Below are positions 3,885 to 59,438 of a stretch of 64,000 nucleotides of DNA, in pieces (the first letter of the stretch is position 1; every line of letters begins with the position of its first letter). Made by a program: the position numbers and the translations under genes. The stretch lies in contig JAJDXV010000098.1 of the NCBI GenBank assembly GCA_022823085.1, forward strand, positions 8,828 to 72,827. The letters run 5' to 3'. The DNA is from Candidatus Poribacteria bacterium (GTDB lineage Bacteria; Poribacteria; WGA-4E; WGA-3G). Below the pieces are notes generated by a model. The model saw only the letters and a program-made list of their open reading frames with translations. It was not told the origin of the DNA and made no database searches.

Positions 3885-4544
3885 ATGAGTACTCAAAACG
3901 AAGTAGATGAACAGTTGTGTAAGATTATCACTTTTAACGGACAAGGGTGTTCGGGGAAATCAACGCAATCAGAACTGCTTGCCAAATCAGATAAGGAAAA
4001 GTATAAACTCATTCATAGTTATGAACTTCGGAGGAACTTCAGAGATAATCTTTATAAAGAACTGGGGAGTATGAATACATGTATCAAATACTTAGATGAG
4101 AATAGGACTTGTAAGACGCTATACCAAGTGGAGGTTATCGGAATTCCAACGCTCGCTTGGTTGACGGCTTATTTTTACAAGGAAGTCAAACCGCGCATGT
4201 CAGAAGGTTCCATTGTTGTTTTAGATCACTATCTTGGAGATTATTATGTCGATATGTTAGCCGGTGTTGATATTGAAAAATTTCGATGCTTCGTTCGGGA
4301 ATATTTGGCTATACCTGACTTTGATCAAGGTATTCATTTCTATCTTGATATTGATTATGATACCTATCAAAATAGGTGGTACAAGCGCGAAGGAACAGAT
4401 CCTCCAGTGACTTCAGGTCTTTTTAAAGAACGTCGTAGACGCTATCTGGAACTTTATAAGAAAGGGTATCTGAAATGTATTAATGCTACTGGTACGAGTA
4501 AGGAGAGGGTTGCTGAGGAGATACGAAAAAAATTATCTCAGTGA
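3885..4544 (+). CDS. P-loop nucleotide/nucleoside kinase-like protein (dTMP-kinase-like)
   Basis: P-loop in ITFNGQGCSGKSTQSELLAK. ATG at 3885 lies behind GGAGG. Confidence 0.5.
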   Translation: MSTQNEVDEQLCKIITFNGQGCSGKSTQSELLAKSDKEKYKLIHSYELRRNFRDNLYKELGSMNTCIKYLDENRTCKTLYQVEVIGIPTLAWLTAYFYKEVKPRMSEGSIVVLDHYLGDYYVDMLAGVDIEKFRCFVREYLAIPDFDQGIHFYLDIDYDTYQNRWYKREGTDPPVTSGLFKERRRRYLELYKKGYLKCINATGTSKERVAEEIRKKLSQ

Positions 4545-43451: not shown

Positions 43452-45281
43452 TCAGCTAAAATTTTTTCCGTATTTTTCCGATTGCATTCGATATAATGTT
43501 GCATACCGCCCACCTTTGTTCATCAGTTGATCGTGTGTACCTTCCTCAAGAACTTGCCCTTGGTCAATGACGAGAATTCTGTCTGCCATGCGGACGGTCG
43601 AAAAACGGTGAGAGATTAACAAGGTTGACACACCTTCCGTAAGAATTTTGAAGCGTTGAAAGAGGCCGTATTCAGATTCTGCATCGAGTGCGGCTGTCGG
43701 TTCATCAAGGATAAGGATTTGTGCATCTCTCATAAATGCGCGCGAGATGGCGATTTTCTGCCACTCTCCACCAGATAAATCGACACCGCCTTCAAATTGT
43801 CGACCCAGCTGTGTCTGGTAGCCTTCAGACATCTTTGAAACCACGGCATCCGCTTGGCCTTGCTCGGCAGCCTGAATCACCGCGGTATCGTTGTTAACTT
43901 GTGCTACATTCCCAATACCGATGTTTTCGCCTGCGGTCAAGAAAAAGCGCGAGAAATCCTGAAAGACGGGGGCGATTTTCTGGCGTAAACTATCAAGGCG
44001 ATACCGGTCTAGTGGAACATCGTCAATGAATATCTCACCTTGTGTTGGGTCATAGAAACGACAGAGTAGTTTTACAAGCGTCGTTTTGCCAACACCGTTT
44101 TCTCCAACGATAGCGAGTGTCTCTCCGGCGTTTATTGAAAAGGAGATGTTGTTAAACACGGATTGCTTACGCCCTGGATAAGAGAAAGAGACATTCCTAA
44201 ACTCGACAGATCGGCTAATGTGAGAAAACTCCTGGGGTGCCTCAACTGTTTTAAGTGCAGGCACCAAATCAAAGAAGGACCAGAAAGAACGAAGACCCGC
44301 CGTCGAACCGATAAGTTGTCCCGCCATCAAGGTCAGCATCCAGAAACTCTGTTGCATCGAGGCAACGATGGAAAAATACATTGCCAAGTCCCCTACAGTA
44401 ATTTTCCCCTGGACCGAAATCAGCACGACGTAGGCGTATAAGAGTGTAAGTCCAATCCCATGCAAGAGTGAAAAAAGTACTGTGCTTCTCGTATGCGAAA
44501 TTTTCACGGAACGAACGCGTTTGAAAACCGTGTCAAAAAGTTCGCGGTACTGGTTGATAAAGTAACCACCGAGGTTAAAGAGTTTTATCTCTTTTGCACT
44601 TTTTGTATCAACAAGGAGTCGGTTGTAGTATGCCAATTGCCGCGATTCGGGCATCTGGTCCCAAGTAACGTCAAAGGCATATCTGTAATGGTGATATTCA
44701 ACCCACAGGTGAGGCAGAGCAACCAAGAGCATTGCAACAGGGATGAACGGACTGATTGTGGTCGTTAAGATCAATAGGGAGATTAAGGTAATCCCGTTGC
44801 TAAGCGTAGACGACATAAGCCATAATGTGCTTTCAGGGAGTGTTGTGTTCTCTTGGATAAATCGGAGTTGATTGTAAAATTGACTCTCATCAAAATGCAC
44901 CATCCCTGGTAGTTTCGATGCCTTTTTCATAACCTTTTTATCTATGTCAGCGATAAGCAGATCCGAAAGCGTACTACGGATTGCCTCTGATGCTGGCATC
45001 AGAATGAAGGGAAGGACTTGACAGACGAGGTAGCTAATACCCCAAAACACTGTTATGTTTTCTAATGAACTTCCCGCCTTCAGGAGTGTCACCACGTCAT
45101 TGACAAGTCGGTTGAGCAACGCAGCAGAAATCGCAGGGAGGCCGCTCGAAACAACCAGCAATAGCAGCAGTAAAGTGGTTAGTTTCGCTGAGCTGCGCCA
45201 GGCGACAGGAAGCATTCTCAGGCTTAATTTTGCCGCATCCACAACTTGTGTTGTCCAAGAACGTAATTTTTTAAACATCAT
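43452..45281 (-). CDS. ABC exporter, fused TMD-NBD half-transporter
   Basis: Six-TM N-half. Walker A GENGVGKTT, signature LSGGEWQKIAISRA, Walker B ILILDEPTAALD. Overlaps the upstream paralogue by 11 nt. Confidence 0.85.
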   Translation of the reverse strand: MMFKKLRSWTTQVVDAAKLSLRMLPVAWRSSAKLTTLLLLLLVVSSGLPAISAALLNRLVNDVVTLLKAGSSLENITVFWGISYLVCQVLPFILMPASEAIRSTLSDLLIADIDKKVMKKASKLPGMVHFDESQFYNQLRFIQENTTLPESTLWLMSSTLSNGITLISLLILTTTISPFIPVAMLLVALPHLWVEYHHYRYAFDVTWDQMPESRQLAYYNRLLVDTKSAKEIKLFNLGGYFINQYRELFDTVFKRVRSVKISHTRSTVLFSLLHGIGLTLLYAYVVLISVQGKITVGDLAMYFSIVASMQQSFWMLTLMAGQLIGSTAGLRSFWSFFDLVPALKTVEAPQEFSHISRSVEFRNVSFSYPGRKQSVFNNISFSINAGETLAIVGENGVGKTTLVKLLCRFYDPTQGEIFIDDVPLDRYRLDSLRQKIAPVFQDFSRFFLTAGENIGIGNVAQVNNDTAVIQAAEQGQADAVVSKMSEGYQTQLGRQFEGGVDLSGGEWQKIAISRAFMRDAQILILDEPTAALDAESEYGLFQRFKILTEGVSTLLISHRFSTVRMADRILVIDQGQVLEEGTHDQLMNKGGRYATLYRMQSEKYGKNFS

Positions 45282-47121
45282 AGTGCTCCGCTTGTAGGTT
45301 GTATAGTCTGGCGTATAGGCCCTTACGCTTCATCAGTTCGTCATGTGCGCCTTCCTCGATGAGTTTTCCGCCATCAAGCACGAGAATCCTGTCTGCCATG
45401 CGTACAGTTGACATGCGATGCGAAATCAATATGGTTGTTTTATCTTTCGTTAGTTCTTGAAAACGTGCGTAGATTTCGTATTCGCTTCGCACATCCAAGG
45501 CAGCTGTTGGTTCATCAAGGATAAGGATTTGTGCGTTTCGGATAAGGGCACGGGCGATCGCGATTTTTTGCCATTGTCCACCTGAGAGTTCTGTGCCATC
45601 TTCAAACTGACGAGAGAGTATCGTTTCATATCCATTTGGAAGTTGGTCGATGAAATCTGCACCTGCGTCTTTAGCAGCGGCTTTTATGAATCCCATTTGG
45701 GAAAGTTGCGCGACATTGCCGAGACCAATGTTTTCTTGGACGCTGAGTTGATATTTGAGAAAGTCTTGGTCAACAACGCCCATTTGGTGCCGTAAATTGT
45801 CGAGGTTAAAATAGTGGATAGGGGCATCCTCGAGCCTAATTTCACCATCAGTTGGGTCATACATTCGGGTAATCAATTTAACTAGAGTTGTTTTCCCTTC
45901 TCCATTTTTGCCGACGATTGCCACGGTCTCCTTAGGGTGAATATGGAAGGAAACACCATCCAAAATCTTCCGCTCCGTGTTAGGGTATTGAAAGTGGACC
46001 TCTTTGAAGGCAATACCTTTCTCAAGGGATCGTGGGACACGTTTGGCGAATGCTTTCGGGACCATTTTAATCGCTGGCTTCCTTTTCAGAAAATCGTAAA
46101 GATGCGTCAAAAAGCCGCCGATCTGATGCATGAAAGCAAAATTAGCGAGAGATGTGTTCAGCGTCGTCCACGCGAGAATCGTAGCACCACCATAAGCGGT
46201 AAGTTCACCAACACTTACCTCACCACCGATTGTCTGTCGAAAGAGATAGACATAAAGAGCACACAAGCCCACACCACCTAACAGGGCATACAGTGAAAGC
46301 GAACGAAATTCACGCCATCGGACTGACCACAGCACGCTAAGAATGCGTTTAAAAGTACGCACATATTGTCCTAAAAAGAAATCGTGAAGCCCAAAAATAC
46401 GCACATCTTTGGCTGTTTCGTTAAAAAGAAACTGGTTCCTGAAATAGTCGAGTTTTCTGGCTTCTGGTGCCTGAAATTGAATCGCGATTCCAGCAAGATT
46501 GGCGTAACGATATTGCATCAAGGCGTAGGGTAACGCGCATAAAATTAAAAGAATTGGTGCTAACGGGTGAAACAACGAAAGAAACAGAGCAGTTGACAAT
46601 AATTCCCAACAATCTCGACCGGCTTGAAAAGCGTAGATAACTAAGTCAGCACTACTTCGCTCAATATGCCGGACCTGTTGGAGTTGGTCATGGAGTTTTG
46701 GATCTTCAATGTGGGCAAGGTCGGGATGTCGATTCGAAGCTTCCATAACAAGAAGTGTCAAATGACGGCGCATTCTGTCGCCAAGGATGCTTTTAACCGC
46801 AAGGAAAATCGGTCCTGTTGTTTGCAAGACGACGGTGGCAAGTGCTAACACCATCAAGACCGGAGCTACCTCACCGAAGTCCCCCTCGTTTGAACCAGAG
46901 ATAGCGATGACCATGTCAATCACATCTCGGCTCAAGTAGAGAATCAGCACGGGTAGCAAACCTTGGATGAACATTAAGAAAAAAATAAGTAGGGTCTCAA
47001 ATTTTCCGGCGGCCCATATCATTCCGAAAGACCGGAAAATCGCTTTGTAAACCGGACCCCATTCTTTTACAGGTGGATTCCACTGTTCAAGTTTGATATC
47101 AGATGCTTTGTGTTGTTTCAT
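45271..47121 (-). CDS. ABC exporter, fused TMD-NBD half-transporter (likely heterodimer partner)
   Basis: Walker A GKNGEGKTT, signature LSGGQWQKIAIARA, Walker B ILILDEPTAALD. Confidence 0.85.
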   Translation of the reverse strand: MKQHKASDIKLEQWNPPVKEWGPVYKAIFRSFGMIWAAGKFETLLIFFLMFIQGLLPVLILYLSRDVIDMVIAISGSNEGDFGEVAPVLMVLALATVVLQTTGPIFLAVKSILGDRMRRHLTLLVMEASNRHPDLAHIEDPKLHDQLQQVRHIERSSADLVIYAFQAGRDCWELLSTALFLSLFHPLAPILLILCALPYALMQYRYANLAGIAIQFQAPEARKLDYFRNQFLFNETAKDVRIFGLHDFFLGQYVRTFKRILSVLWSVRWREFRSLSLYALLGGVGLCALYVYLFRQTIGGEVSVGELTAYGGATILAWTTLNTSLANFAFMHQIGGFLTHLYDFLKRKPAIKMVPKAFAKRVPRSLEKGIAFKEVHFQYPNTERKILDGVSFHIHPKETVAIVGKNGEGKTTLVKLITRMYDPTDGEIRLEDAPIHYFNLDNLRHQMGVVDQDFLKYQLSVQENIGLGNVAQLSQMGFIKAAAKDAGADFIDQLPNGYETILSRQFEDGTELSGGQWQKIAIARALIRNAQILILDEPTAALDVRSEYEIYARFQELTKDKTTILISHRMSTVRMADRILVLDGGKLIEEGAHDELMKRKGLYARLYNLQAEHYDV

Positions 47122-47139: not shown

Positions 47140-48132
47140 TCAGATGGCATCCTGTTGGTTGATTTCAAGGGCTCGCTGTAATTCGCCACCCCACTGTTGT
47201 AGTGTAGAGTGCACGTAACGCCGTCTCTTAGTATTCCAGCTGGGATGAATATCAACTGTCCATTTCCAGACACAATTTAGAGTCGCAGGAAACGAGCGAA
47301 TCTGGAGATCTATTAAATCTCCTGCTCTAACAGTACAAGGTTTAAGGATTGGGAAAAAAATATTATCCCAACTTAGAACTGGGGATGGCGGTTCGTTGGT
47401 TAACCACGTGTTTTCCGAGAGTTGAGCATTAAACCAGCCACAGAAACCGTGTAACACCCCGTCGTTCTCAATTTGAAAAGTGACTCGTTCGTTCAACATA
47501 GAGTGTTCTGGCATGTTTGCGAAATCAATTGTGTGTAATTGCGCCGGTGCAGATAAGAAGTTGGTTTTATTAAACCGGTTGCTATACACTTCGTTGAGAG
47601 CCGTTTCTCGTGCCAAAGAAAAATCAAGATTATAGAAATCTGAAGACCAGACATCAATGGTGTTGTAAAAATCTGCGTCTTGGATTGGAACAATCGTCAT
47701 TTCCAGCCAAGAGGGCAAGGATTTCCCACCGGGTTTCAGGAATCGTCGCTGGGCATCAGAGATGACATCGACTAAATTTTGACCTACACCAAACTTAGAA
47801 ATCAACTCTGAGATAATTACATCTGCCTTCGTTGGCAGTTCGATCTTCCGAGAATCCTGATTAATAAAAACTACTTGATCCACGAGCCCGTTGGCTTCGG
47901 CGATGGCTTTGGCAATCTCGATAATTTTAGTTCTTTCAATCGCGTAGACCCGCTTTGCTCCGGCTTGACAAGCGAAAAAGGAGAGGACTCCGCTTCCGGC
48001 ACCGATATCTACTACAGTATCCCCTTTTTTTACTGTTTCAAAGATACTCTGACGGTAGCGTTCATTTCGGAGCGTGTCAGCGACTAAGACCCCGTGAAAT
48101 TCTGTGCTATCAAAATCAAAAGACAAAATCAC
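47140..48132 (-). CDS. PRMT-like (protein arginine N-methyltransferase-like) class I SAM-dependent methyltransferase
   Basis: HGVLVADTLRNERYRQSI (PRMT H..ML.D..R...Y), motif I VVDIGAGSGVLSFFACQAGAKRVYAIE, KADVIISELISKFGVGQN (double-E-loop position), then a ~150-aa beta-barrel-sized C-terminal half. Confidence 0.6.
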   Translation of the reverse strand: MILSFDFDSTEFHGVLVADTLRNERYRQSIFETVKKGDTVVDIGAGSGVLSFFACQAGAKRVYAIERTKIIEIAKAIAEANGLVDQVVFINQDSRKIELPTKADVIISELISKFGVGQNLVDVISDAQRRFLKPGGKSLPSWLEMTIVPIQDADFYNTIDVWSSDFYNLDFSLARETALNEVYSNRFNKTNFLSAPAQLHTIDFANMPEHSMLNERVTFQIENDGVLHGFCGWFNAQLSENTWLTNEPPSPVLSWDNIFFPILKPCTVRAGDLIDLQIRSFPATLNCVWKWTVDIHPSWNTKRRRYVHSTLQQWGGELQRALEINQQDAI

Positions 48133-48138
48133 TTCCTC

Positions 48139-49215
48139 CTAATTGAGATGTGATAAAATAATATCAGCTGCAGTTTGAGAGGCATTGTCGTATTGGTAGA
48201 CGGATGCTGCCTCTGCCATCTCTTGCTGCTTTTGCGGTGAACTGAGAATTGATTCAACCAACGCAGCTAACCTGTTTCCAGTAATCTCATCAAAGTCCAC
48301 AGGGGCCGTGATGCCTAATCGTTTCAAATTCATTACATGAAAAGTGTCGACGGCATTACCACCATCTATTATTGAAATCGACGGAACCCCAAATCGTGCG
48401 AGTTCGCAGAGCGTCCCAAACGATCCACGCGTAATAGCGAGCGTACTCACCGCCTGCAAGCGCAGAATGTTCCAATCCCATGACTTGACTACAGCGTACG
48501 GATAGTCTGTTAACTTTTGGCGATAATAATCCGCATCCTCTCCAGCAATTAGGATAAGTCCATATTGCTTTGGGTCAAGTTTCATGTACGTATCGACAGC
48601 AGATGCTAACATCTCTTTGCGTCGGGACTGGCTATTTCCGCCCATACTCACAAAAATTAGCGGTAAATCCGCTGGCACGCCTAATTCTTGCCTTACTGAG
48701 AGTCCCCCATCTTCGAGCGGTTCAGCTGTTCGTAAGATGGGTCCGATAAAAGAGACCGGAACTTTTAGTGTCGGCGGAACAGTATGCCCTGATTCTATAT
48801 CCCGTATTACAATTTCCGTAGCGCAATTGAAAAAACGCGCCAATAAGCCGGTAAATGCTGTCATATCGCCCAACTCCTCAAAAAACCAGTGTGTAATAAG
48901 GACGCTGGGGATATTATATTTTTTTGCTACAGGTAAAGCATAAAAAACTTCATGTGTAACAATAATATCCGGTTCGACTGAAGGGATAATGCTCTGAAGT
49001 GCGCTCAATTCTTTCTGCGTGTACTCATCGTCGAGTTCCATCTCAAGATCCAAGGCACTTCGCCCATTAGACGAGATAGCCTTAAGTCCATCAGCATAAG
49101 AACCGAGGATGATATTTACATCCGGTCGCATGGATTCCAAACGATCTACGACCATTAGATCGGGGATTGCGTGTCCAAAGCCTCGCCCACGTGAAAAATA
49201 GAGAATTTTTGGCAT
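48139..49215 (-). CDS. GT1/GT28-like (MGT/UDP-glycosyltransferase-type) glycosyltransferase
   Basis: From ATG 49215: MPKILYFSRGRGFGHAIPDLMV... and C-terminal ...TRGSFGTLCELARFGVPSISI.... Confidence 0.6.
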   Translation of the reverse strand: MPKILYFSRGRGFGHAIPDLMVVDRLESMRPDVNIILGSYADGLKAISSNGRSALDLEMELDDEYTQKELSALQSIIPSVEPDIIVTHEVFYALPVAKKYNIPSVLITHWFFEELGDMTAFTGLLARFFNCATEIVIRDIESGHTVPPTLKVPVSFIGPILRTAEPLEDGGLSVRQELGVPADLPLIFVSMGGNSQSRRKEMLASAVDTYMKLDPKQYGLILIAGEDADYYRQKLTDYPYAVVKSWDWNILRLQAVSTLAITRGSFGTLCELARFGVPSISIIDGGNAVDTFHVMNLKRLGITAPVDFDEITGNRLAALVESILSSPQKQQEMAEAASVYQYDNASQTAADIILSHLN

Positions 49216-49346
49216 AGCAAATGTCCTTTTATAGTGAATTCCAAAAATAAGTTTACATTTTAAAGTTCCCAAATTCCCCCCTGATAAGGGGGGTTAGGGG
49301 GTTCTTTTGTTTGGCAGTGTGCAATTAATTATGAGATCCACTATAA

Positions 49347-50003
49347 TTAAATTCTGCCGAGTCGTCGCTGCTCAATGATGTGTTTTACGCCAACATCAAG
49401 CAGTGCTGTCGGTCCGTTATGTTTCAGACCTTCAATGTACATTTCAACAGGCGCAATTCCCGGATAGATCCGTTCCGCTGTAAAAAGCGCAACAGGGTGC
49501 CCCTTCGCTCTGTCAACTTCGGCTTTCAAGATGGCAACGACCGTTTCCCGTAACAGTGCGGTATTCGTCCAATTCGCTTTAAACACAACTTGACCGTTTC
49601 GGTCAACGATGAAACTCATGTTAGGACCGTACCCATATCGTTTGTGAGCATATTCATCCCATCCATCAACCCATACAGGGCGAGAAATACAATTTTTCGC
49701 CCTGAAGTCAGAGGCACGTTCCATTTTTTCTTCAAAAGAGAAAAGTTCAGGATAATTCTCACCCGGGTGTGCCTCTTTGGTATAGACGAATAACACTTCG
49801 ACCCCTCGATGTTGATAATCCTTATACAGTCGATCCATTGACGGAGACTCCGCCACACAATACGGTCACGTCATACTTCCAAACTCAAGGACAACTAACT
49901 TTCCTCTAAGATCCGACAATTTCACGAATTTATTGTCAGTGTCAGTTGCTTCAAAGGGAGGGGCAGGTCCCAATACATTAATTCTTCTTCTCGGTATGCT
50001 CAT
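49347..50003 (-). CDS. Thioredoxin-fold (AhpC/TSA/redoxin-like) protein with an in-frame TGA at the first position of the redox motif (T-U-P-Y-C); candidate selenoprotein
   Basis: ATG at 50003..50001 opens MSIPRRRINVLGPAPPFEATDTDNKFVKLSDLRGKLVVLEFGSMT-TGA(49868..49866)-PYCVAESPSMDRLYKDYQHRGVEVLFVY.... It is in frame with track ORF 49347..49856, which only starts at a GTG 4 codons after the TGA. Confidence 0.55.
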
Positions 50004-50094
50004 TGTAGGATTGTCCTTTTTTAGAATTGCGTCAGTCCCCCGGATTGTATCTATCTAAAGTAACAAATAGAATCCCTTTCCGAATTGACCAAGT

Positions 50095-52038
50095 TCACTT
50101 GGTTGTGTATCGCCTCAACCAGAGCTCAAGCGATAATGTATTAACCACATTCCCAATTTTTTCCCAGTCCCCGAGCATCCATCGAGAAAGGATCCCTCGC
50201 AAGCGCTCCCGGTTGACGTATCCTCTTTTAACCACCTCAACCGCATCTTGGTCTAACTGCGTTATCAGTTCGGGTAATGCAAGCTTTAACCCCTTCATGG
50301 CATGTCTTCCCAGATTCGGTTGGCTAAGGCGGTTTCGGATCATATCGGGTAGAATACCTTTCATTCCGTTGCGGATGAGGAGTTTCCTTACGATTCTTCC
50401 TTTTGCGTCGACAGTGATTCTATGGTGCATTGGGACACCCATAACATATTCGACAAGCCGTTGGTCAAAGAAAGGCTGACGGATTTCGATATTCAGTGGG
50501 CAGTAGACGACTTGAACCGCCTGACATGAGTTACTTTCACGTAGATACCGATATTCAAGCCGCAGCGATTTTTTATGACAATCTCTATCAGGAATTAAAC
50601 GTCGTATACGCTGGGTAACAGCTTGTTCCCGAGCAAAGCGTTCGTCGAGCCATTCAGGAATCATTGGACCCGTATCTTCTACACCGATATGATTCCAGAA
50701 TTCCAGCGGCTTTCGGATAATTGCGCCCACGAAGGGTTGCATGAAATATGGGATGTGCGGTTTAATCCCAAACTCTGATAATGCATACAGATAAGACATG
50801 TTAGGTGCACGTGCCCATTTCGACAATTCGCCTCTGAGTTTTCTGAACTTTCCATCGCGGAGCAAATCTGCGATATTTAGCGCACTTCCTTGCATAATCT
50901 CGTCGCCCCCGATTCCAGAAAACAGAACAGTTGCTCCAAAATCGTTGGCGGCTTCAGGGGTTAGGTAGTGTTCATGACAAGCGAGATAAACGCCGTAGGG
51001 TTCATCGGGACACGGGTAAGATTCCGTACTTTGCATGAAAAGCCGATCATCCGTCGGGATCCTCCGATTGATGAGATTATACTTCTGTATAACTGATTGC
51101 TGATAGCTTGCTTCGTCTGCTTCTCTAAAGACGTCAAACCCTTTTGATAGCGTAAGCAATTCATTGTTCGGCATCTCGCCGCTTTGATAGATGTCAGCCG
51201 CCATTGAAACAATAGACGAGGAATCTAATCCGCCGCTCAATTCAGAAGCGATGGGTGCTTTATTACGCATCCTGCATTTTACAGCTTCACGAAATGCTTC
51301 CCTGAAGCCGTCAGCATAATCGTCTGGATCGGAATACTGTATTTCTTTTATCCCTGCCGTGGACCAGTATTCAACTGGTTCGGAAATGCCACGCTGATCT
51401 ACCCAAATATAGCAGGCAGGAGGTAGACGCTTAACACCCTTAATTGCTGTGTTTGGCGAATTCAGCGATCCAGTCACCGGATTTAATAGAAAATCTGCCA
51501 TATATTCATTATTGAGTTCCCTTGATATTCGCGGATGCTCATAAAATTGCGCGATTGTCGAGCCAAATATAAGGGTCCGATCAACAAGCGTATAATATAA
51601 AGGTCTCATACCTGCATAATCCCGGGCACAAAACAGGCGTTGTTGTTTTTTGTCCCAGATTGCAAAAGCATAGTCACCGATAATACGTTTTACACAGTCA
51701 GCACCCCACCGTTTATAGGCAGCAAGGATTAACTCAACATCCGTGACAATACGTTCTTTCGCATTAATACCGCAATGCTTGATTAACGCTTCTCGATTAT
51801 CAACGCGTCCGTCAGAAACGATACATAAGGAACCGGATTCGTCTGAAAAGGGCTGATGCTCCCATTGCGATTCCTCTGTTGTATGGAATTGACACTGTCC
51901 CATGCCTATTTGCCTGTCAACGAAATTACTTATTTTCTTGCCGCCTCGCCGAACGCGCGTGACAACCATCATCTTTTGTAATAATTCTTGGTTAACAGGC
52001 GAAGCATCTAAATTAAATAGTCCTGCAAAACCACCCAT
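50095..52038 (-). CDS. Lasso peptide cyclase (asparagine synthetase B-like, C protein)
   Basis: MGGFAGLF... N-terminus without the Cys2 nucleophile. PP-loop SELSGGLDSSSIV. 647 aa, directly downstream of B1/B2. Confidence 0.85.
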   Translation of the reverse strand: MGGFAGLFNLDASPVNQELLQKMMVVTRVRRGGKKISNFVDRQIGMGQCQFHTTEESQWEHQPFSDESGSLCIVSDGRVDNREALIKHCGINAKERIVTDVELILAAYKRWGADCVKRIIGDYAFAIWDKKQQRLFCARDYAGMRPLYYTLVDRTLIFGSTIAQFYEHPRISRELNNEYMADFLLNPVTGSLNSPNTAIKGVKRLPPACYIWVDQRGISEPVEYWSTAGIKEIQYSDPDDYADGFREAFREAVKCRMRNKAPIASELSGGLDSSSIVSMAADIYQSGEMPNNELLTLSKGFDVFREADEASYQQSVIQKYNLINRRIPTDDRLFMQSTESYPCPDEPYGVYLACHEHYLTPEAANDFGATVLFSGIGGDEIMQGSALNIADLLRDGKFRKLRGELSKWARAPNMSYLYALSEFGIKPHIPYFMQPFVGAIIRKPLEFWNHIGVEDTGPMIPEWLDERFAREQAVTQRIRRLIPDRDCHKKSLRLEYRYLRESNSCQAVQVVYCPLNIEIRQPFFDQRLVEYVMGVPMHHRITVDAKGRIVRKLLIRNGMKGILPDMIRNRLSQPNLGRHAMKGLKLALPELITQLDQDAVEVVKRGYVNRERLRGILSRWMLGDWEKIGNVVNTLSLELWLRRYTTK

Positions 52039-52058: not shown

Positions 52059-52472
52059 CTATTTCACAGAAACCTTCACATATCTTTCTTTAACAATATC
52101 TCCGTCGTTGACAACTCGCCCGTTACATTCAACCCAGGCATGAAAAGTAAGTGGTGGATACTTGCTACATCCCAAACAGAGCTGAGCAGGTATACCTTCG
52201 CGCCGCAGGAGAGAATAGACAACCAGTGATCTTTCCAGACATTCAATTCGACGTCTGATATACAGACGAAATGATTTTTTTGCAATTTTGACGGTTTTGG
52301 AAATCTTTTCCCAATCAACCTCCGCTTCCTGACTTCCCGTTGATTTTTGCCATTTGAGTATGGTTCTGACAACTTGATGAAACCCAAAAGACCACAAACC
52401 AAAGTCAATCAAAAATATCAGGACGTATGCACGAAGAAATGTTGAGCTGTCTCTTATAATCTGTTTAGCCAT
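52059..52472 (-). CDS. Lasso peptide leader peptidase (B2, transglutaminase-like Cys protease)
   Basis: CLERSLVVYSLLRREGIPAQLCLG ... FHAWVECNGRVVND (Cys/His/Asp triad pattern). Confidence 0.85.
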   Translation of the reverse strand: MAKQIIRDSSTFLRAYVLIFLIDFGLWSFGFHQVVRTILKWQKSTGSQEAEVDWEKISKTVKIAKKSFRLYIRRRIECLERSLVVYSLLRREGIPAQLCLGCSKYPPLTFHAWVECNGRVVNDGDIVKERYVKVSVK

Positions 52473-52746
52473 CGGTTATCTCCAGTAAGTTGTTCTCCTG
52501 AAGCGCATTAAACAACGCTATCAAATCCTCTCGGAGCGTTTCCTCAGGGACATCATACTCTGTCTTGAGTTGCTCAAGAATCGGGCCAAGTTTATTTTCT
52601 TCTTCAAGCAAGGAAAAAACGTCTGTTCCGACACTACCGACGCCATAAAAATCGCCCGTTTCAAAATTGAGCAACACCAGATCGTCATCTACGATCGCTT
52701 TTTCAACGTGTTCTGGTATTGTGAAAATCGATGTATCTGTAATCAT
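52465..52746 (-). CDS. Lasso peptide B1 protein (stand-alone PqqD-family RRE)
   Basis: 93 aa, ...AIVDDDLVLLNFETGDFYGVGSVGTDVFSLLEEENKLGPILEQLKTEYDVPEETLREDLIALFNALQENNLL. Overlaps both neighbouring genes. Confidence 0.85.
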   Translation of the reverse strand: MITDTSIFTIPEHVEKAIVDDDLVLLNFETGDFYGVGSVGTDVFSLLEEENKLGPILEQLKTEYDVPEETLREDLIALFNALQENNLLEITDG

Positions 52747-54523: not shown

Positions 54524-54670
54524 CTAACAATTGGTGTTTGCATGGGTTCGCCCACCACTGGAATCATATACAGTAGGAGTAGAACCTTTAACAAGGGTTC
54601 TGGCATTGCCATACTTGACAACCCGTGGTGCCGTGTAGGCTTTCTTCTTGGATTTCAACACCTTACGCAT
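54524..54670 (-). CDS. Lasso precursor peptide A
   Basis: GGAGG RBS. MRKVLKSKKKAYTAPRVVKYGNARTLVK/GSTPTVYDSSGGRTHANTNC. The leader fits YxxPxLxxxG; the predicted core has Gly1 and Asp8. Confidence 0.8.
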   Translation of the reverse strand: MRKVLKSKKKAYTAPRVVKYGNARTLVKGSTPTVYDSSGGRTHANTNC

Positions 54671-54812
54671 TGTTGTTATACCTCCTGGAATATATCAATT
54701 CAAATTAACGCTCACTTGACTTAAGCACTTAGCACATAAGTATCACTTTCAGAAACTGATTTGCCCTTCTGATTGTTCTTAGGCAAACACGGAACTACAA
54801 AATTTACTACAA

Positions 54813-55028
54813 TCAAGCCAAAATGTCGTGGACAACATGAACTTGAACACCAGTAAGACGGAAGTCCCGACCTTGGAAACGGTAGGTTAGCTTCTCGTAG
54901 TCAATGGAAAATAAATGCAACATTTTGGCGTGTAAATCGTGGACATACACAATATCTTCCACGGCGTTATATCCAAGTTCATCAGTTTTGCCGTGACTCA
55001 CACCGCCTTTGATGCCCCCGCCGGCTAA
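54813..55028 (-). pseudogene. 3' fragment of a DUF1501-type (sulfatase-like) gene
   Basis: [61 protein letters not shown]... is the characteristic C-terminal ~70 aa of DUF1501 proteins. It is preceded by a stop and has no N-terminal part. Confidence 0.6.
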
Positions 55029-55151
55029 CTATATTGAGAATCCACGGATGTCTTGTTTCTCATCAAATCAAATATTTAAGCGACGCTCCGGGCACAATGT
55101 TGGAGTGCCTTTTCTGTTTGACAACAATCAAACAGAAAAGGCATCTCTTAT

Positions 55152-55298
55152 GTTAACAGTTCGGTGGGCAATACTTTCTACCGCCACCTGTCTCATACTG
55201 ACAAGTGCTACTCCCTTTAACTAGAATAGTGGCATTGCCATATCTAACTAACCGGGGTGCTTCGTAGGTTTTCTTTTCAGGCTTCAGCATCTTACGCA
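55152..55298 (-). CDS. Lasso precursor peptide B
   Basis: AAAGGAGGTG RBS. MRKMLKPEKKTYEAPRLVRYGNATILVK/GSSTCQYETGGGRKYCPPNC. Confidence 0.8.
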
Positions 55299-55370
55299 TC
55301 GTTTTCACCTCCTTTCATATATTAATTTAGACACTCGACTGAAAAGTCGCATTCCACTCGTTACTGAGTG

Positions 55371-55511
55371 TTAACAGTTATGGTTTCTACGAGTACATGA
55401 GCCATCATAGAGTGGGCTTCCACCACTTTTTACGAGCACCGTGGCGTTGCCGTAACTGACTAACCGGGGTGCTTCGTAGGTTTTCTTTTCAGGCTTCAGC
55501 ATCTTACGCAT
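55371..55511 (-). CDS. Lasso precursor peptide C
   Basis: Identical RBS and leader DNA to B. MRKMLKPEKKTYEAPRLVSYGNATVLVK/SGGSPLYDGSCTRRNHNC. Confidence 0.75.
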   Translation of the reverse strand: MRKMLKPEKKTYEAPRLVSYGNATVLVKSGGSPLYDGSCTRRNHNC

Positions 55512-55581
55512 CGTTTTCACCTCCTTTCATATATTAATTTAGATATGCGACGAAAAGGTCGCAAACCACTTATTAGAAACA

Positions 55582-55709
55582 TTAGGTGTTATTCCGAGCA
55601 CTTGATTCATACTGAACAATGCCAGAGCCTTTGATTAACGCGGTAGCATTGCCGTAGCTAACTGAGATACTTGATAGTCTTTCTTTGTTGACTTTAACAT
55701 CTTACGCAT
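55582..55709 (-). pseudogene. Decayed lasso precursor copy D
   Basis: No RBS. MRKMLKSTKKDYQVSQL, then a 4-nt deletion relative to its siblings. The shifted frame still reads YGNATALIK/GSGIVQYESSARNNT*. Confidence 0.65.
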
Positions 55710-55776
55710 TTTTTCTTTTTTCAAACTTTAATTTGCAAACATGACTGAAAAATCGAAAAACACTCGCTACCGAGTA

Positions 55777-55917
55777 TTAGTAATTAGAGTTTTTGCGAGT
55801 ACCTCCGCAATCAAGATTTTTGGTTCCACCATTTTTTATGAGCACCATGGCATTGCCGTAGCTGACCAACTGAGGTGTTTCGTAGGTTTTCTTTCCAGAT
55901 ATGAACATCTTACGCAT
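55777..55917 (-). CDS. Lasso precursor peptide E
   Basis: AAAGGA RBS. MRKMFISGKKTYETPQLVSYGNAMVLIK/NGGTKNLDCGGTRKNSNY. Confidence 0.7.
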   Translation of the reverse strand: MRKMFISGKKTYETPQLVSYGNAMVLIKNGGTKNLDCGGTRKNSNY

Positions 55918-57799: not shown

Positions 57800-57985
57800 C
57801 TTTCTGCCTTTTCGTCCTCATAAGCGGCGTTGATGGGTACGAGGATGTCTTGGCAGAACTCTTCAGCGAGGATGGCGTTGATTTCTGCGGTGACCTACCA
57901 CCTTTTTTGATACACTGCGAGGGAGGCGTGTTCAAGGAATCGTTATAGGACGATGTAGGATTGTATTCTTTCTATGGATGTGATT
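57800..57985 (-). pseudogene. Rep gene remnant (3' end), interrupted by IS3 sequence
   Basis: DNA is alignable with 7360-7540. The translation ...RIQSYIVL*..VTAEINAILAEEFCQDILVPINAAYEDEKAE compares with Rep ...RIQSYIVRQRL...MVTAEINAILAAEFCQDLIAPVQTAYEDEKEK. Confidence 0.7.
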
Positions 57986-58341
57986 CCGCTTGTCGATAGA
58001 TAGGCCTTTGAAAGATACTGTACACCTTGATCGGAATGATGTATCTCAGGGACGCTTCGGTGTAATGCTGCTTCCAGGGGTTTCAACGTCAGCGGTTGCA
58101 TCAGATGTTGACTGAGCTGCCACGCTCTAATCATCCGAGTGAAGACATCCATGAGTAGAAAAACATAGACGAAGCGTCCCTTGAGACGCACATAGGTAAT
58201 ATCAGACACCCAGACCTGATCCTGATGAGAGACATTAAGGGTTTCAAGACGGTTACGCCAAGGCTTCTCTCCCTGAAGCGATGTTGTTGTTTGACAGGCA
58301 CGCTTGACGGCGACCAACAGATTATGGGTTTGTACTGCCAT
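57986..58341 (-). pseudogene. IS3-family OrfB (rve/DDE integrase core) fragment, 5'-truncated
   Basis: ...DQVWVSDITYVRLKGRFVYVFLLMDVFTRMIRAWQLS...VPEIHHSDQGVQYLSKAYL. Its 5' end abuts the left end of the oppositely oriented IS3 copy. Confidence 0.7.
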
Positions 58342-58405
58342 CGGAAATTAGGGCCACCCCCTAAACCAAGATTGTATAATACAATCTCACTGAAAGGAGC
58401 ATCCG

Positions 58406-58690
58406 ATGGCGAAACGAAAACGAAGAAACTTCACCCCCGAGTTTAAAGCGGCGGTCGTTCTGGAGGCCCTCCGCGGTGAAAGTTCCCAAGCAGAACTGTG
58501 TCGTCGACACAACCTCAGCGATGACCAACTCTCGAAGTGGAAGCAGCAGTTTCTTGAAAATGCAGCGTCTCTCTTTGCATCGAACGATAAGGCATCTGAA
58601 GATGCTGCGGAACGCATCGCGCACCTTGAGCAGCTCGTTGGGCGGTTGACTGTGGCCCTGGACATCGAAAAAAAGCCTCAACCTGGTTGA
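58406..58690 (+). CDS. IS3-family transposase OrfA (HTH)
   Basis: 94 aa, classic IS3/IS911 OrfA N-terminus. Confidence 0.8.
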   Translation: MAKRKRRNFTPEFKAAVVLEALRGESSQAELCRRHNLSDDQLSKWKQQFLENAASLFASNDKASEDAAERIAHLEQLVGRLTVALDIEKKPQPG

Positions 58691-59438
58691 ACTGACCTCG
58701 GCTGAGAAGCGAAACCTCGTAGAGGCGTTGCGGGACGATTATTCAGTTCGAGAGATTTGCGAGACACTCGGTTTCCACCGGAGCCTTCTCTATTATCCCC
58801 GAAAAGCGACCCTTCTCAAAAGGTGCTTGAAGCGGAAATAGAGCAGTTATGTGCGCGGTATCCGACATAGGGGTATAGGCGTATCACCCACTTGCTGGTA
58901 AATGCGGGATACACGGTTGGGTATCGCCGTGTTGCCCGATTGCTGAAAGAAAAGCATCTCTGGGTTTCCGGTAAACGGGGTGCCTGTCAAACCACGAGAT
59001 CGCTTGAAGGGGCAAGGTTTCCGTGGGTCAATCGACTTGAAGCTCTTGACATCTGCAGACGCGATCAGGTCTGGGTTGGCGATATTACCTACGTCCGTCT
59101 GAAAAGACGCTTCGTCTGTGTTTTCTACTCATGGATGTCTTCAGTCGCATGATAAAAGAGTGGAAACTCAGTCAACATTGAAACCGCTCCAAGAAGCGTT
59201 GTGCCAAAGCGTCCCGGAGATCCACCATTCCGATCAAGGCGCGCAGTATCTTTCAAGTGCTTATATTTCCACCCTCACGCGTCATGGGATTGAGATTTCA
59301 TTAGCACAGAGAGGCTGCCCTTGGGAGAACGGATATGCTGAACGCCTCATCCGCACGCTCAAGGAAAAAGAAGTTTACCTCAATGCATATGAGGACATTC
59401 ACGAAGTGAGAGTCCGCATTGGTCGTTTTATCACATAG
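58690..59438 (+). pseudogene. IS3-family transposase OrfB, broken by stops/frameshifts
   Basis: The reading frame must be switched at least twice (a TAG after ...CARYPT, and a shift near 59120-59150). Confidence 0.7.

Follow-up and report, generated by a model that had tools for sequence, protein, structure and literature searches.

A deiodinase-like redoxin gene with an in-frame UGA codon, probably read as selenocysteine, in a lasso peptide cluster of Candidatus Poribacteria

Introduction

A redoxin gene inside a lasso peptide cluster of a Candidatus Poribacteria genome carries an in-frame TGA where the first Cys of a CxxC redox motif would be expected. Is this codon read as selenocysteine (Sec), and what would such an enzyme do beside a peptide cluster? 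We analyzed the 64,000-nt stretch that holds the gene, here called the window (contig JAJDXV010000098.1, C61:8828-72827), together with the genome to which it belongs (assembly GCA_022823085.1; 5.2 Mb, 181 contigs, 92% complete). The gene lies on the minus strand at 49347..50003 and comprises 218 codons plus a TAA stop. Its predicted product is a deiodinase-like redoxin of the AhpC/TSA fold with the motif FGSMT-U46-P-Y-C49. Taken as a whole, the observations are best explained by a Sec-decoded deiodinase-like redoxin that is dedicated to the lasso cluster and would act in thiol-disulfide chemistry, an explanation that we consider likely.

By domain and motif, the protein is of a catalogued bacterial kind, the "deiodinase-like / Prx-like UxxC" selenoproteins. 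The deiodinase-like family (pfam00837, UxxC) goes back to a prediction from the Sargasso Sea selenoproteome (PMC1088965), and later selenoproteome catalogues list it too (PMC9312934, PMC13188914). Selenoproteins of this kind have been catalogued since 2005 with no function or substrate assigned (PMC1088965, PMC13188914).

A single reading frame across the UGA codon

The frame opened by the ATG at 50003 reads MSIPRRRINVLGPAPPFEATDTDNKFVKLSDLRGKLVVLEFGSMT (MSIPRRR...LVVLEFGSMT) up to codon 46, the in-frame UGA (49866..49868, minus strand). Past this TGA (49868..49866) it continues as PYCVAESPSMD... without a change of frame until the TAA at 49349..49347. The start codon, the passage through TGA into PYC and the downstream open reading frame (ORF) at 49347..49856 all lie where an earlier, sequence-only reading of this DNA had placed them. 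The resolving Cys of the U-x-x-C motif, Cys49, is encoded at 49857..49859 (minus strand) and is invariant in an alignment of 45 family members. A Shine-Dalgarno-like AAGGA, read from the sequence, stands at 50014..50018 (minus strand), 10 nt 5' of the ATG, and the start MSI... is kept in orthologues. Translation table 11 breaks the gene into ORFs of 45 aa (49866..50003) and 169 aa (49347..49856), and gene callers split it into pieces of 45 aa and 163-164 aa in every assembly. In the protein database, the gene and its relatives are represented only by shortened calls of 163-164 aa that extend over about 73% of the query, and residues 1-45 have their match in another record, of 45 aa.

The consistent split of the gene would fit a TGA that is a genuine stop or a defect, be it a nonsense pseudogene, a sequencing error or a pair of small genes, and a read-through codon for Trp or Cys would be a further variant of this explanation. 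In the same direction points one paralogue of the U-P-P-F type at locus L043, which has TGG (Trp) at the site. Conservation of the codon among relatives argues against it. In the DNA of four relatives from different metagenome assemblies (L015, L016=L017, L018 and L019, the last a 2x-coverage contig with frameshifts), a 45-aa call is likewise followed by a 164-aa call, and the UGA is conserved as TGA. Read through the TGA, all four give FGSLT-U-P[YF]C and are 66-68% identical to the window protein over the full length. Upstream of the TGA, 17-19 substitutions relative to the window fall at codon position 3 and 7-11 at positions 1 and 2. This third-position excess on the 5' side indicates that the 45 N-terminal codons are coding in this frame, and the same third-position-dominated pattern was found downstream; on either side of the TGA, the DNA evolves as a coding region with a single frame.

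More distant relatives were collected in two ways. An exhaustive HMMER search returned 9,608 homologues, most of whose full-length members have Cys at the Sec position (FGSxT-C-Pxx), and the nearest four read C-P-[YF]-C. Alignment with Cys-containing homologues bears out the earlier proposal that the TGA occupies the place of the first Cys of CxxC, since homologues have Cys at exactly that position. Among the loci discussed below, the site is Cys (TGT/TGC) in L020, P0007 and P0008. A scan of species-representative genomes yielded 80 loci with 34-49% identity, of which 78 have TGA at exactly this codon (EFGS[FLY]T-U-PYC). The majority belong to Chloroflexota, and the others to Acidobacteriota, Verrucomicrobiota, Actinomycetota, Myxococcota, Deinococcota and further phyla. 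The same TGA in four independent assemblies and in nearly all of these distant relatives, across many phyla, speaks against a stop or a defect.

In some of these genomes, a second deiodinase-like gene stands in tandem beside the U-P-Y-C gene and carries the exact animal-deiodinase motif FGSIT-U-PPF. Such paralogues have their Sec codons at about 4043 and 6935 in L043, about 6099 in L056 and about 5200 in L058; the copy with TGG is one of those of L043.

A covarying stem-loop downstream of the UGA

Bacterial decoding of UGA as Sec depends on a selenocysteine insertion sequence (SECIS), and the candidate element here is the stem-loop UGGCGGA-GUC-UCCGUCA at 49839..49855 on the minus strand (5' arm 49855..49849, loop 49848..49846, 3' arm 49845..49839). 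Its core, GGCGGA-GUC-UCCGUC, begins 11 nt past the UGA, as the sequence-only reading had described, and a flanking U-A pair extends the stem to 7 bp, starting from 10 nt. Numbered from the U of the UGA, the stem-loop spans nt 14-30 and its first loop G is nt 21; this is the 18th nucleotide after the UGA, in agreement with the 18-19 nt given before.

Two points weigh against this assignment. The folding energy of the hairpin has z = -0.5 to +1.4 relative to shuffled sequences, which is not significant, and the hairpin sits in conserved coding sequence, so that part of its conservation is owed to the protein. Because the folding energy was no better than that of shuffles, we relied on covariation and position. 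A SECIS-type hairpin at such a distance follows only 2 of 485 ordinary TGA stops in this genome, and 0.17% of all its TGA triplets. When 82 family sequences were aligned without gaps, with the UGA as the anchor, 93.9% of the cells were paired, compared with 78% in shuffles and 27-57% when the partner strand is slid. All seven stem pairs show double-sided changes. The covariation score was 0.427 against 0.161 in shuffles, none of the 500 shuffles reached 0.427, and slid controls stayed at or below 0.084. The same-register helix is built from differing sequences, such as GGAUGGC/GCCAUCC, GCGCUGGC/GCCAGCGC and CGCAGAGG/CCUCUGC. In the stem of L016, a G-C pair has become A-U by a compensatory change, at the cost of a Pro-to-Leu substitution in the protein.

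We then built a covariance model, R1, trained only on 77 family members outside lasso clusters. Its sole match in the 64-kb window is the UGA and its SECIS context at 49827..49868 on the minus strand (41.2 bits, E 5e-12). Sec orthologues score 34-45 bits with R1, whereas the homologous site of the three Cys forms scores just 9-11.5 bits, and in the Cys form L020 (TGT) only 2 of 7 stem pairs are in register. That a covarying SECIS goes with the TGA but not with the Cys forms again disfavors a stop or a defect. An Rfam scan of the window gave no family at gathering score and no match to a SECIS family.

Selenocysteine machinery and other in-frame TGA codons in the genome

The sequence-only reading had pointed to selA, selB, selC and selD as the genes to look for, and the genome has a complete Sec machinery. 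selA is present (525 bits), and a tRNA-Sec whose anticodon is TCA reaches 76 bits (gathering score 47) and is directly adjoined by a SelB wing-helix domain (70 bits). SelD (360 bits) itself has an in-frame TGA in the classic ...CAG-U-ASK... site. As also stated earlier, TGA serves as an ordinary stop elsewhere: the TGAs at 4542-4544 and 58688-58690 of the window close open frames of 228 and 98 codons. Genome-wide it closes 485 of 2282 long open frames (21%), and in the operon of the redoxin gene the lasC, PRMT-like, GT4 and ABC2 genes all end in TGA. A recoded genome was rejected on these grounds.

Most of the 200 candidates from a search for ORFs split by TGA were spurious, and only those confirmed by Pfam were used. 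At least six further genes of the genome have an in-frame TGA, and four of them match recognised selenoprotein families. The six (TGA positions on the named strand, in contigs of this genome, G000) encode an FdhA-type formate dehydrogenase (C67:+15250), a T-U-G-F-C peroxiredoxin (C4:+17938), a UGSC-family protein (C145:+5466), a GrdB-like protein (C55:-47450), a WD40 protein with a GMT-U-GAC C-terminus of the metal-binding (HMA) type (C133:+18592) and a protein with a thioredoxin (Trx) domain (C130:-12602). In all six, the UGA is followed by a 7-9 bp stem with a 3-4 nt loop of the form G-[G/U]-N, whose first nucleotide is nt 22-28 from the U. These genes served as the yardstick instead of SelD, for which no hairpin meeting the strict rule was found.

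The proposal that the hairpin is compatible with a bacterial SECIS has gained from four sides: its covariation, its recognition by a model built from other clades, its absence from the Cys forms and a design shared with the other SECIS elements of the genome. With a full Sec machinery, other selenoproteins in the genome and, as described below, a predicted single fold whose first strands come from the 45-residue piece, a stop, a defect or a Trp/Cys read-through becomes very improbable. From the sequence comparisons, we conclude that 50003..49347 is very probably one 218-residue selenoprotein rather than two small ORFs, and we hold with high confidence that UGA codon 46 is decoded as selenocysteine. 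SelB and tRNA-Sec would decode this codon, the signal being the 7-bp stem-loop with a G-U apical loop that lies 10 nt downstream within the coding sequence.

A deiodinase-like fold with a proximal resolving cysteine

In Pfam, the window protein matches AhpC/TSA best (59.7 bits, threshold 26), then Redoxin (44.0 bits) and T4_deiodinase (30.2 bits, threshold 27, a local match). Five relatives tested, including the Cys form L020, reach 37.6-46.8 bits with T4_deiodinase over most of the domain. No NCBIfam model reached its cutoff; the highest-scoring ones were ResA, with 54 against 170, and NF038285, "deiodinase family protein", with 53-68 against 250. When a profile of 45 family members was compared with solved structures in the Protein Data Bank, Dio3 (4TR3, E 1e-15) and Dio2 (9H48, E 2e-10) came first, followed by ResA-type oxidoreductases.

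AlphaFold2 predicts one continuous fold (predicted local distance difference test score 91.6, predicted TM-score 0.89). Its first strands come from the 45-residue piece, and residue 46 ends the loop after strand 36-42, just before the long helix 47-66. In Foldseek comparisons, the model superposes on ResA with a TM-score of 0.87 on the target and a root-mean-square deviation of about 2 A; deiodinase cores give TM-scores of 0.62-0.64 with the largest query coverage. Invariant in the 45-sequence alignment are E40, F41, G42, S43, T45, U46, P47, C49, Y74, T75, E77, A78, H79, P80, G81 and E82. The relay residues of deiodinases have been named as Ser, Thr, Sec, Tyr, Glu and His (PMC11592359), and, as aligned, Ser43/Thr45/Tyr74/Glu77/His79 form a network that matches the proton relay put forward for iodothyronine deiodinases. 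Beyond the Trx fold, residues of about 150-218 (49347-49550) form a family-specific C-terminal extension of three helices with no counterpart in ResA. L193, G197 and A200 are invariant in it, and it could be a peptide-binding or dimerisation module. The lack of a hydrophobic N-terminus suggests that the protein is cytoplasmic.

The affinity to animal Dio1-3 (4TR3, 9H48) comprises the Trx/Prx-like fold (Prx, peroxiredoxin), the FGSxT-U-P strand-loop-helix, the Ser/Thr/Tyr/Glu/His relay and Sec as the nucleophile. By contrast, the window protein has no membrane anchor, U-P-Y-C with a proximal resolving Cys replaces U-P-P/S-F, the family has the C-terminal three-helix extension, and the SECIS is of the bacterial in-frame type rather than in the 3' untranslated region. 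ResA and TlpA give the best structural superposition and share a CxxC-type motif at a helix N-terminus. They are, however, extracytoplasmic, membrane-anchored Cys proteins of cytochrome c maturation, whereas the window protein has no signal or anchor, has Sec in place of the first Cys and has a deiodinase-like EAHPGE block.

Could the protein then be a true reductive dehalogenase of the deiodinase type, in which the selenolate takes a halonium from a halogenated substrate, be it the lasso peptide or some other metabolite? The profile ranking of Dio3 and Dio2 as the nearest solved structures, the conserved S-x-T-U ... Y-x-x-E-x-H relay, the T4_deiodinase score over the Pfam threshold and the paralogues with an exact FGSIT-U-PPF motif in other bacteria would agree with this. 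Several features do not. Aligned by profile with Dio3, the family has a deiodinase-specific omega-loop that is about 9 residues shorter, and the window protein lacks the last relay His, reading YPELFSF where most relatives have His; both points also count against our favored explanation. Instead of U-P-P-F, the motif is U-P-Y-C, whose proximal resolving Cys is typical of thiol-disulfide oxidoreductases; the Pfam scan of cluster genes revealed no halogenase; and the authors who described the bacterial deiodinase-like family favored a generic redox role as likelier (PMC1088965). We regard dehalogenation as very unlikely.

As to the known family (pfam00837), the window protein shares with it the UGA in FGSxT-U-P, the UxxC motif, a T4_deiodinase score above threshold, a SECIS of the bacterial type whose small apical loop contains G, and the occurrence of both Sec and Cys forms. 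With its AhpC/TSA top match and UxxC motif it also resembles the selenoproteins of pfam00578 (UxxC/UxxU) catalogued under the name "Prx-like thiol:disulfide oxidoreductase", and since catalogues name families by domain and motif, the Prx-like label fits the window protein too. Against this label, the family profile is nearer to deiodinases than to any solved peroxiredoxin or ResA structure.

The typical peroxidatic motif of peroxiredoxins is of the PxxxTxxC type. The window protein departs from this signature: it reads L39-E-F-G-S-M-T-U and lacks a Pro at -7. With the NCBIfam models for PrxU (16.8, cutoff 270) and thiol peroxidase (21.2, cutoff 140), it stays far short of the cutoffs.

A redoxin clade confined to lasso peptide clusters

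The sequence-only reading had placed the gene inside a lasso operon whose cores contain Cys, and both parts of this statement held. On the minus strand, the redoxin gene lies between the lasso cyclase (Asn-synthase-like C protein; 50095..52038; Pfam Asn_synthase and GATase_7), which ends in an ordinary TGA at 50097..50095, and a GT28-like glycosyltransferase gene (48139..49272). It is downstream of the genes for the B1/PqqD leader-binding protein (52465..52746; Pfam PqqD) and the lasso B2 protease (52059..52472; Pfam Transglut_core3) and of four precursor genes. Further downstream follow a PRMT-like methyltransferase gene (47140..48132) and two ATP-binding cassette (ABC) exporter genes (45271..47121 and 43452..45281), which, like the GT28-like gene, were assigned with Pfam; all of these lie on the minus strand as well.

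The neighborhood B1-B2-C...redoxin...PRMT-ABC-ABC is shared by the window and by L015, L016, L018 and L019, all with Sec, and by the far more divergent L020 and L100 (=P0007), both with Cys. A third Cys form, L101 (=P0008), lies directly upstream of an Asn-synthase-type cyclase gene. L020 is from a metagenome-assembled genome of Latescibacterota, and its cyclase is 43% identical. In a maximum-likelihood tree, the lasso-cluster redoxins, Sec and Cys forms together (8 loci), make up one clade, separate from a large U-P-Y-C clade and a U-P-P-F clade. Support is 100% for the four Sec forms, 88% with L020 and P0007 added and 92% with P0008 added. Unlike the main deiodinase-like family, this separate branch has no N-terminal YNYxxF extension of about 22 residues and, unlike the rest of the family, it is always found within a lasso peptide cluster. 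None of the other approximately 75 Sec loci has lasso genes nearby, and the non-lasso family loci have no shared neighbor beyond antisense artefacts. What is new for this known family is the context, a lasso-dedicated clade whose Sec and Cys forms are interchangeable. In the literature searched, we found no natural selenoprotein in a lasso cluster or in any other cluster for peptides that are made on ribosomes and modified after translation (RiPPs).

The converse does not hold for lasso clusters at large. Within 8 kb of 80 more distant metagenome lasso clusters, 18 of which share the PRMT-like gene, there was no gene of the redoxin family. The family is represented by a single copy in this genome, and no orthologue was found in 24 genomes of the same genus or 16 of the same order. 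This sporadic occurrence among relatives indicates that the gene travels with a specific, sporadically distributed lasso cluster. One genome of the same genus has a stripped cluster, lasC-ABC-ABC (G015:C72; L119 5560-10316), with ABC genes 74% identical and without redoxin, GT28 and PRMT genes; its contig ends inside lasC, and the precursors lie beyond the contig end.

Cysteines in the precursor peptides

The four lasso precursor genes of the window (54524..54670, 55153..55308, 55371..55520 and 55777..55917, minus strand) encode cores with 1, 3, 2 and 1 Cys, respectively; the core of precursor C is SGGSPLYDGSCTRRNHNC. Precursors are visible in six redoxin-bearing clusters, and each of these has one or more cores with Cys at the ring-acid + 3 position (D-x-x-C-[TS]-R). 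A C-terminal Cys is found as well in five of the six, either in the same peptide (window precursor C, L020, L100) or in a co-encoded one (L016, L018). Since L016 and L018 have the two conserved Cys on separate peptides, a disulfide between peptides can be envisaged there. A peptide with a 1-8 ring and a disulfide in the tail would be similar to lasso peptides of class IV (PMC7689547).

Two types of precursor recur in the redoxin-bearing clusters. The first has a KKxYxxP[RQ]LVKYGNA-like leader and a core ending in ...NC, and the second a SAYxxPRLTLFGNAVDLVK-like leader and a core with D-x-x-C-T-R. The precursor loci are 54524-55917 (minus strand) in the window, 206-654 in L016, 1864-2230 in L018, 2027-2948 in L019, 5696 in L020 and 6477-6830 in L100.

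For comparison, we used clusters of the PRMT type that have no redoxin. The leader motif failed on these distant clusters; reading the gaps between lasC and PRMT by hand gave one candidate precursor in each of 11 clusters. A single core Cys is present in 10 of the 11, in nine of them as a C-terminal ...C-L, and the remaining one has none. The core end ...MM[TAP]-C-L is conserved in L120, L121, L147, L149, L159, L160, L162, L168, L173 and L188, in each case in the lasC-PRMT gap. A conserved Cys close to the C-terminus seems to be characteristic of lasso peptides associated with PRMT, and the additional core Cys goes with the redoxin. As a comparison across distant, phylogenetically non-independent clusters, this association is suggestive.

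Possible roles of the redoxin

How the redoxin would act can be outlined from its motif and fold. Sec46, at the N-terminus of helix 1, would attack as a selenolate an oxidised sulfur or another electrophile, and Cys49 would resolve the intermediate to an intramolecular selenenylsulfide, which a cellular reductant or oxidant would recycle. The genomic context suggests that the redoxin acts on the Cys of lasso peptides before export, where it would form, isomerise or reduce an intra- or inter-peptide disulfide. The sequence-only reading had likewise suggested a role in disulfide chemistry. On the basis of the conserved synteny and the Cys patterns, we give such a thiol-disulfide role on lasso peptides a roughly even chance; the substrate and the redox direction are our inference.

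Three considerations weigh against this role. Several co-encoded cores carry 0 or 1 Cys; the link between redoxin and Cys is correlative and drawn from non-independent lineages; and the probable cytoplasmic location speaks against simple oxidative folding. Precedent also counsels restraint. The SviF/MslF proteins of the class I lasso clusters for sviceucin and MS-271 are, like the redoxin, Trx-fold C/UxxC proteins encoded in a lasso cluster with Cys-containing cores (PMC9266682), and by analogy disulfide handling or a role in export would be plausible here. Disulfides nevertheless form without these thioredoxin-type CXXC proteins, whose effect is on export or yield (PMC9266682), and this tempers any firm functional claim for the lasso-clade redoxin. 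They also differ from it, being from Streptomyces, whereas the window clade occurs in other phyla, a marine lineage and Latescibacterota. The window protein uses Sec and belongs to the deiodinase-like family, and the Pfam scan of cluster genes showed no DoxX partner.

The main alternative to thiol-disulfide chemistry on the peptide is a general redox or export-helper role. The protein would then be a real selenoprotein whose job is not peptide maturation: a protector of the peroxidase type or of a general redox kind, or a self-immunity or export helper that travels with the cluster and, for example, detoxifies peroxide or keeps exporter or peptide thiols reduced. AhpC/TSA as the best Pfam match, the wider Sec family outside lasso clusters, whose lack of a conserved neighbor suggests general redox functions, the effect of SviF on export rather than on disulfide formation and the co-encoded cores without Cys are all compatible with such a role. 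It accounts less well for the departure from the peroxiredoxin signature, for the far-subthreshold NCBIfam peroxiredoxin scores and for the invariant U-x-x-C motif of the dithiol type. Nor would it predict a clade confined strictly to lasso clusters with additional conserved core Cys, or the absence of the gene from same-genus genomes that lack the cluster. On balance, we consider a protector or helper role possible but rather improbable.

A bolder form of the thiol-disulfide explanation, which we advance as speculative and doubtful, is that the redoxin is the first natural selenoenzyme dedicated to RiPP maturation, a cytoplasmic oxidoreductase of the deiodinase fold that installs or shuffles a specific lasso disulfide. 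In L016 and L018, the disulfide would then join the peptide with the ring-acid + 3 Cys to the peptide with the C-terminal Cys and give a lasso heterodimer, and a selenenic-acid relay driven by peroxide might supply the oxidising equivalents. If true, this would provide a first defined substrate for the orphan deiodinase-like family of bacteria. Short of that, the lasso-locked clade and the extra conserved Cys in the peptides turn an orphan family into a testable enzyme-substrate pair with a candidate substrate.

These findings have practical consequences. Because gene callers divide the gene into 45 aa and about 164 aa, genome-mining pipelines will overlook it. Heterologous expression of such clusters in hosts without a compatible Sec machinery would silently truncate the enzyme. 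The natural Cys versions (L020, L100) offer a ready work-around for the Sec dependence.

Other features of the locus

The 74-nt gap between the stop codon of the redoxin gene and the putative TTG start of the GT28-like gene is filled by a G/C-rich palindrome at 49277-49301, CCCCCC-TTATCA-GGGGGG on the gene strand, which is terminator-like on the opposite strand. On the other side of the cluster, beyond the precursor array and a sigma factor gene, fragments of IS3-type transposases (OrfA- and OrfB-like) lie on both strands at 57943-59438. These flanking fragments fit the sporadic distribution of the cluster within the genus.

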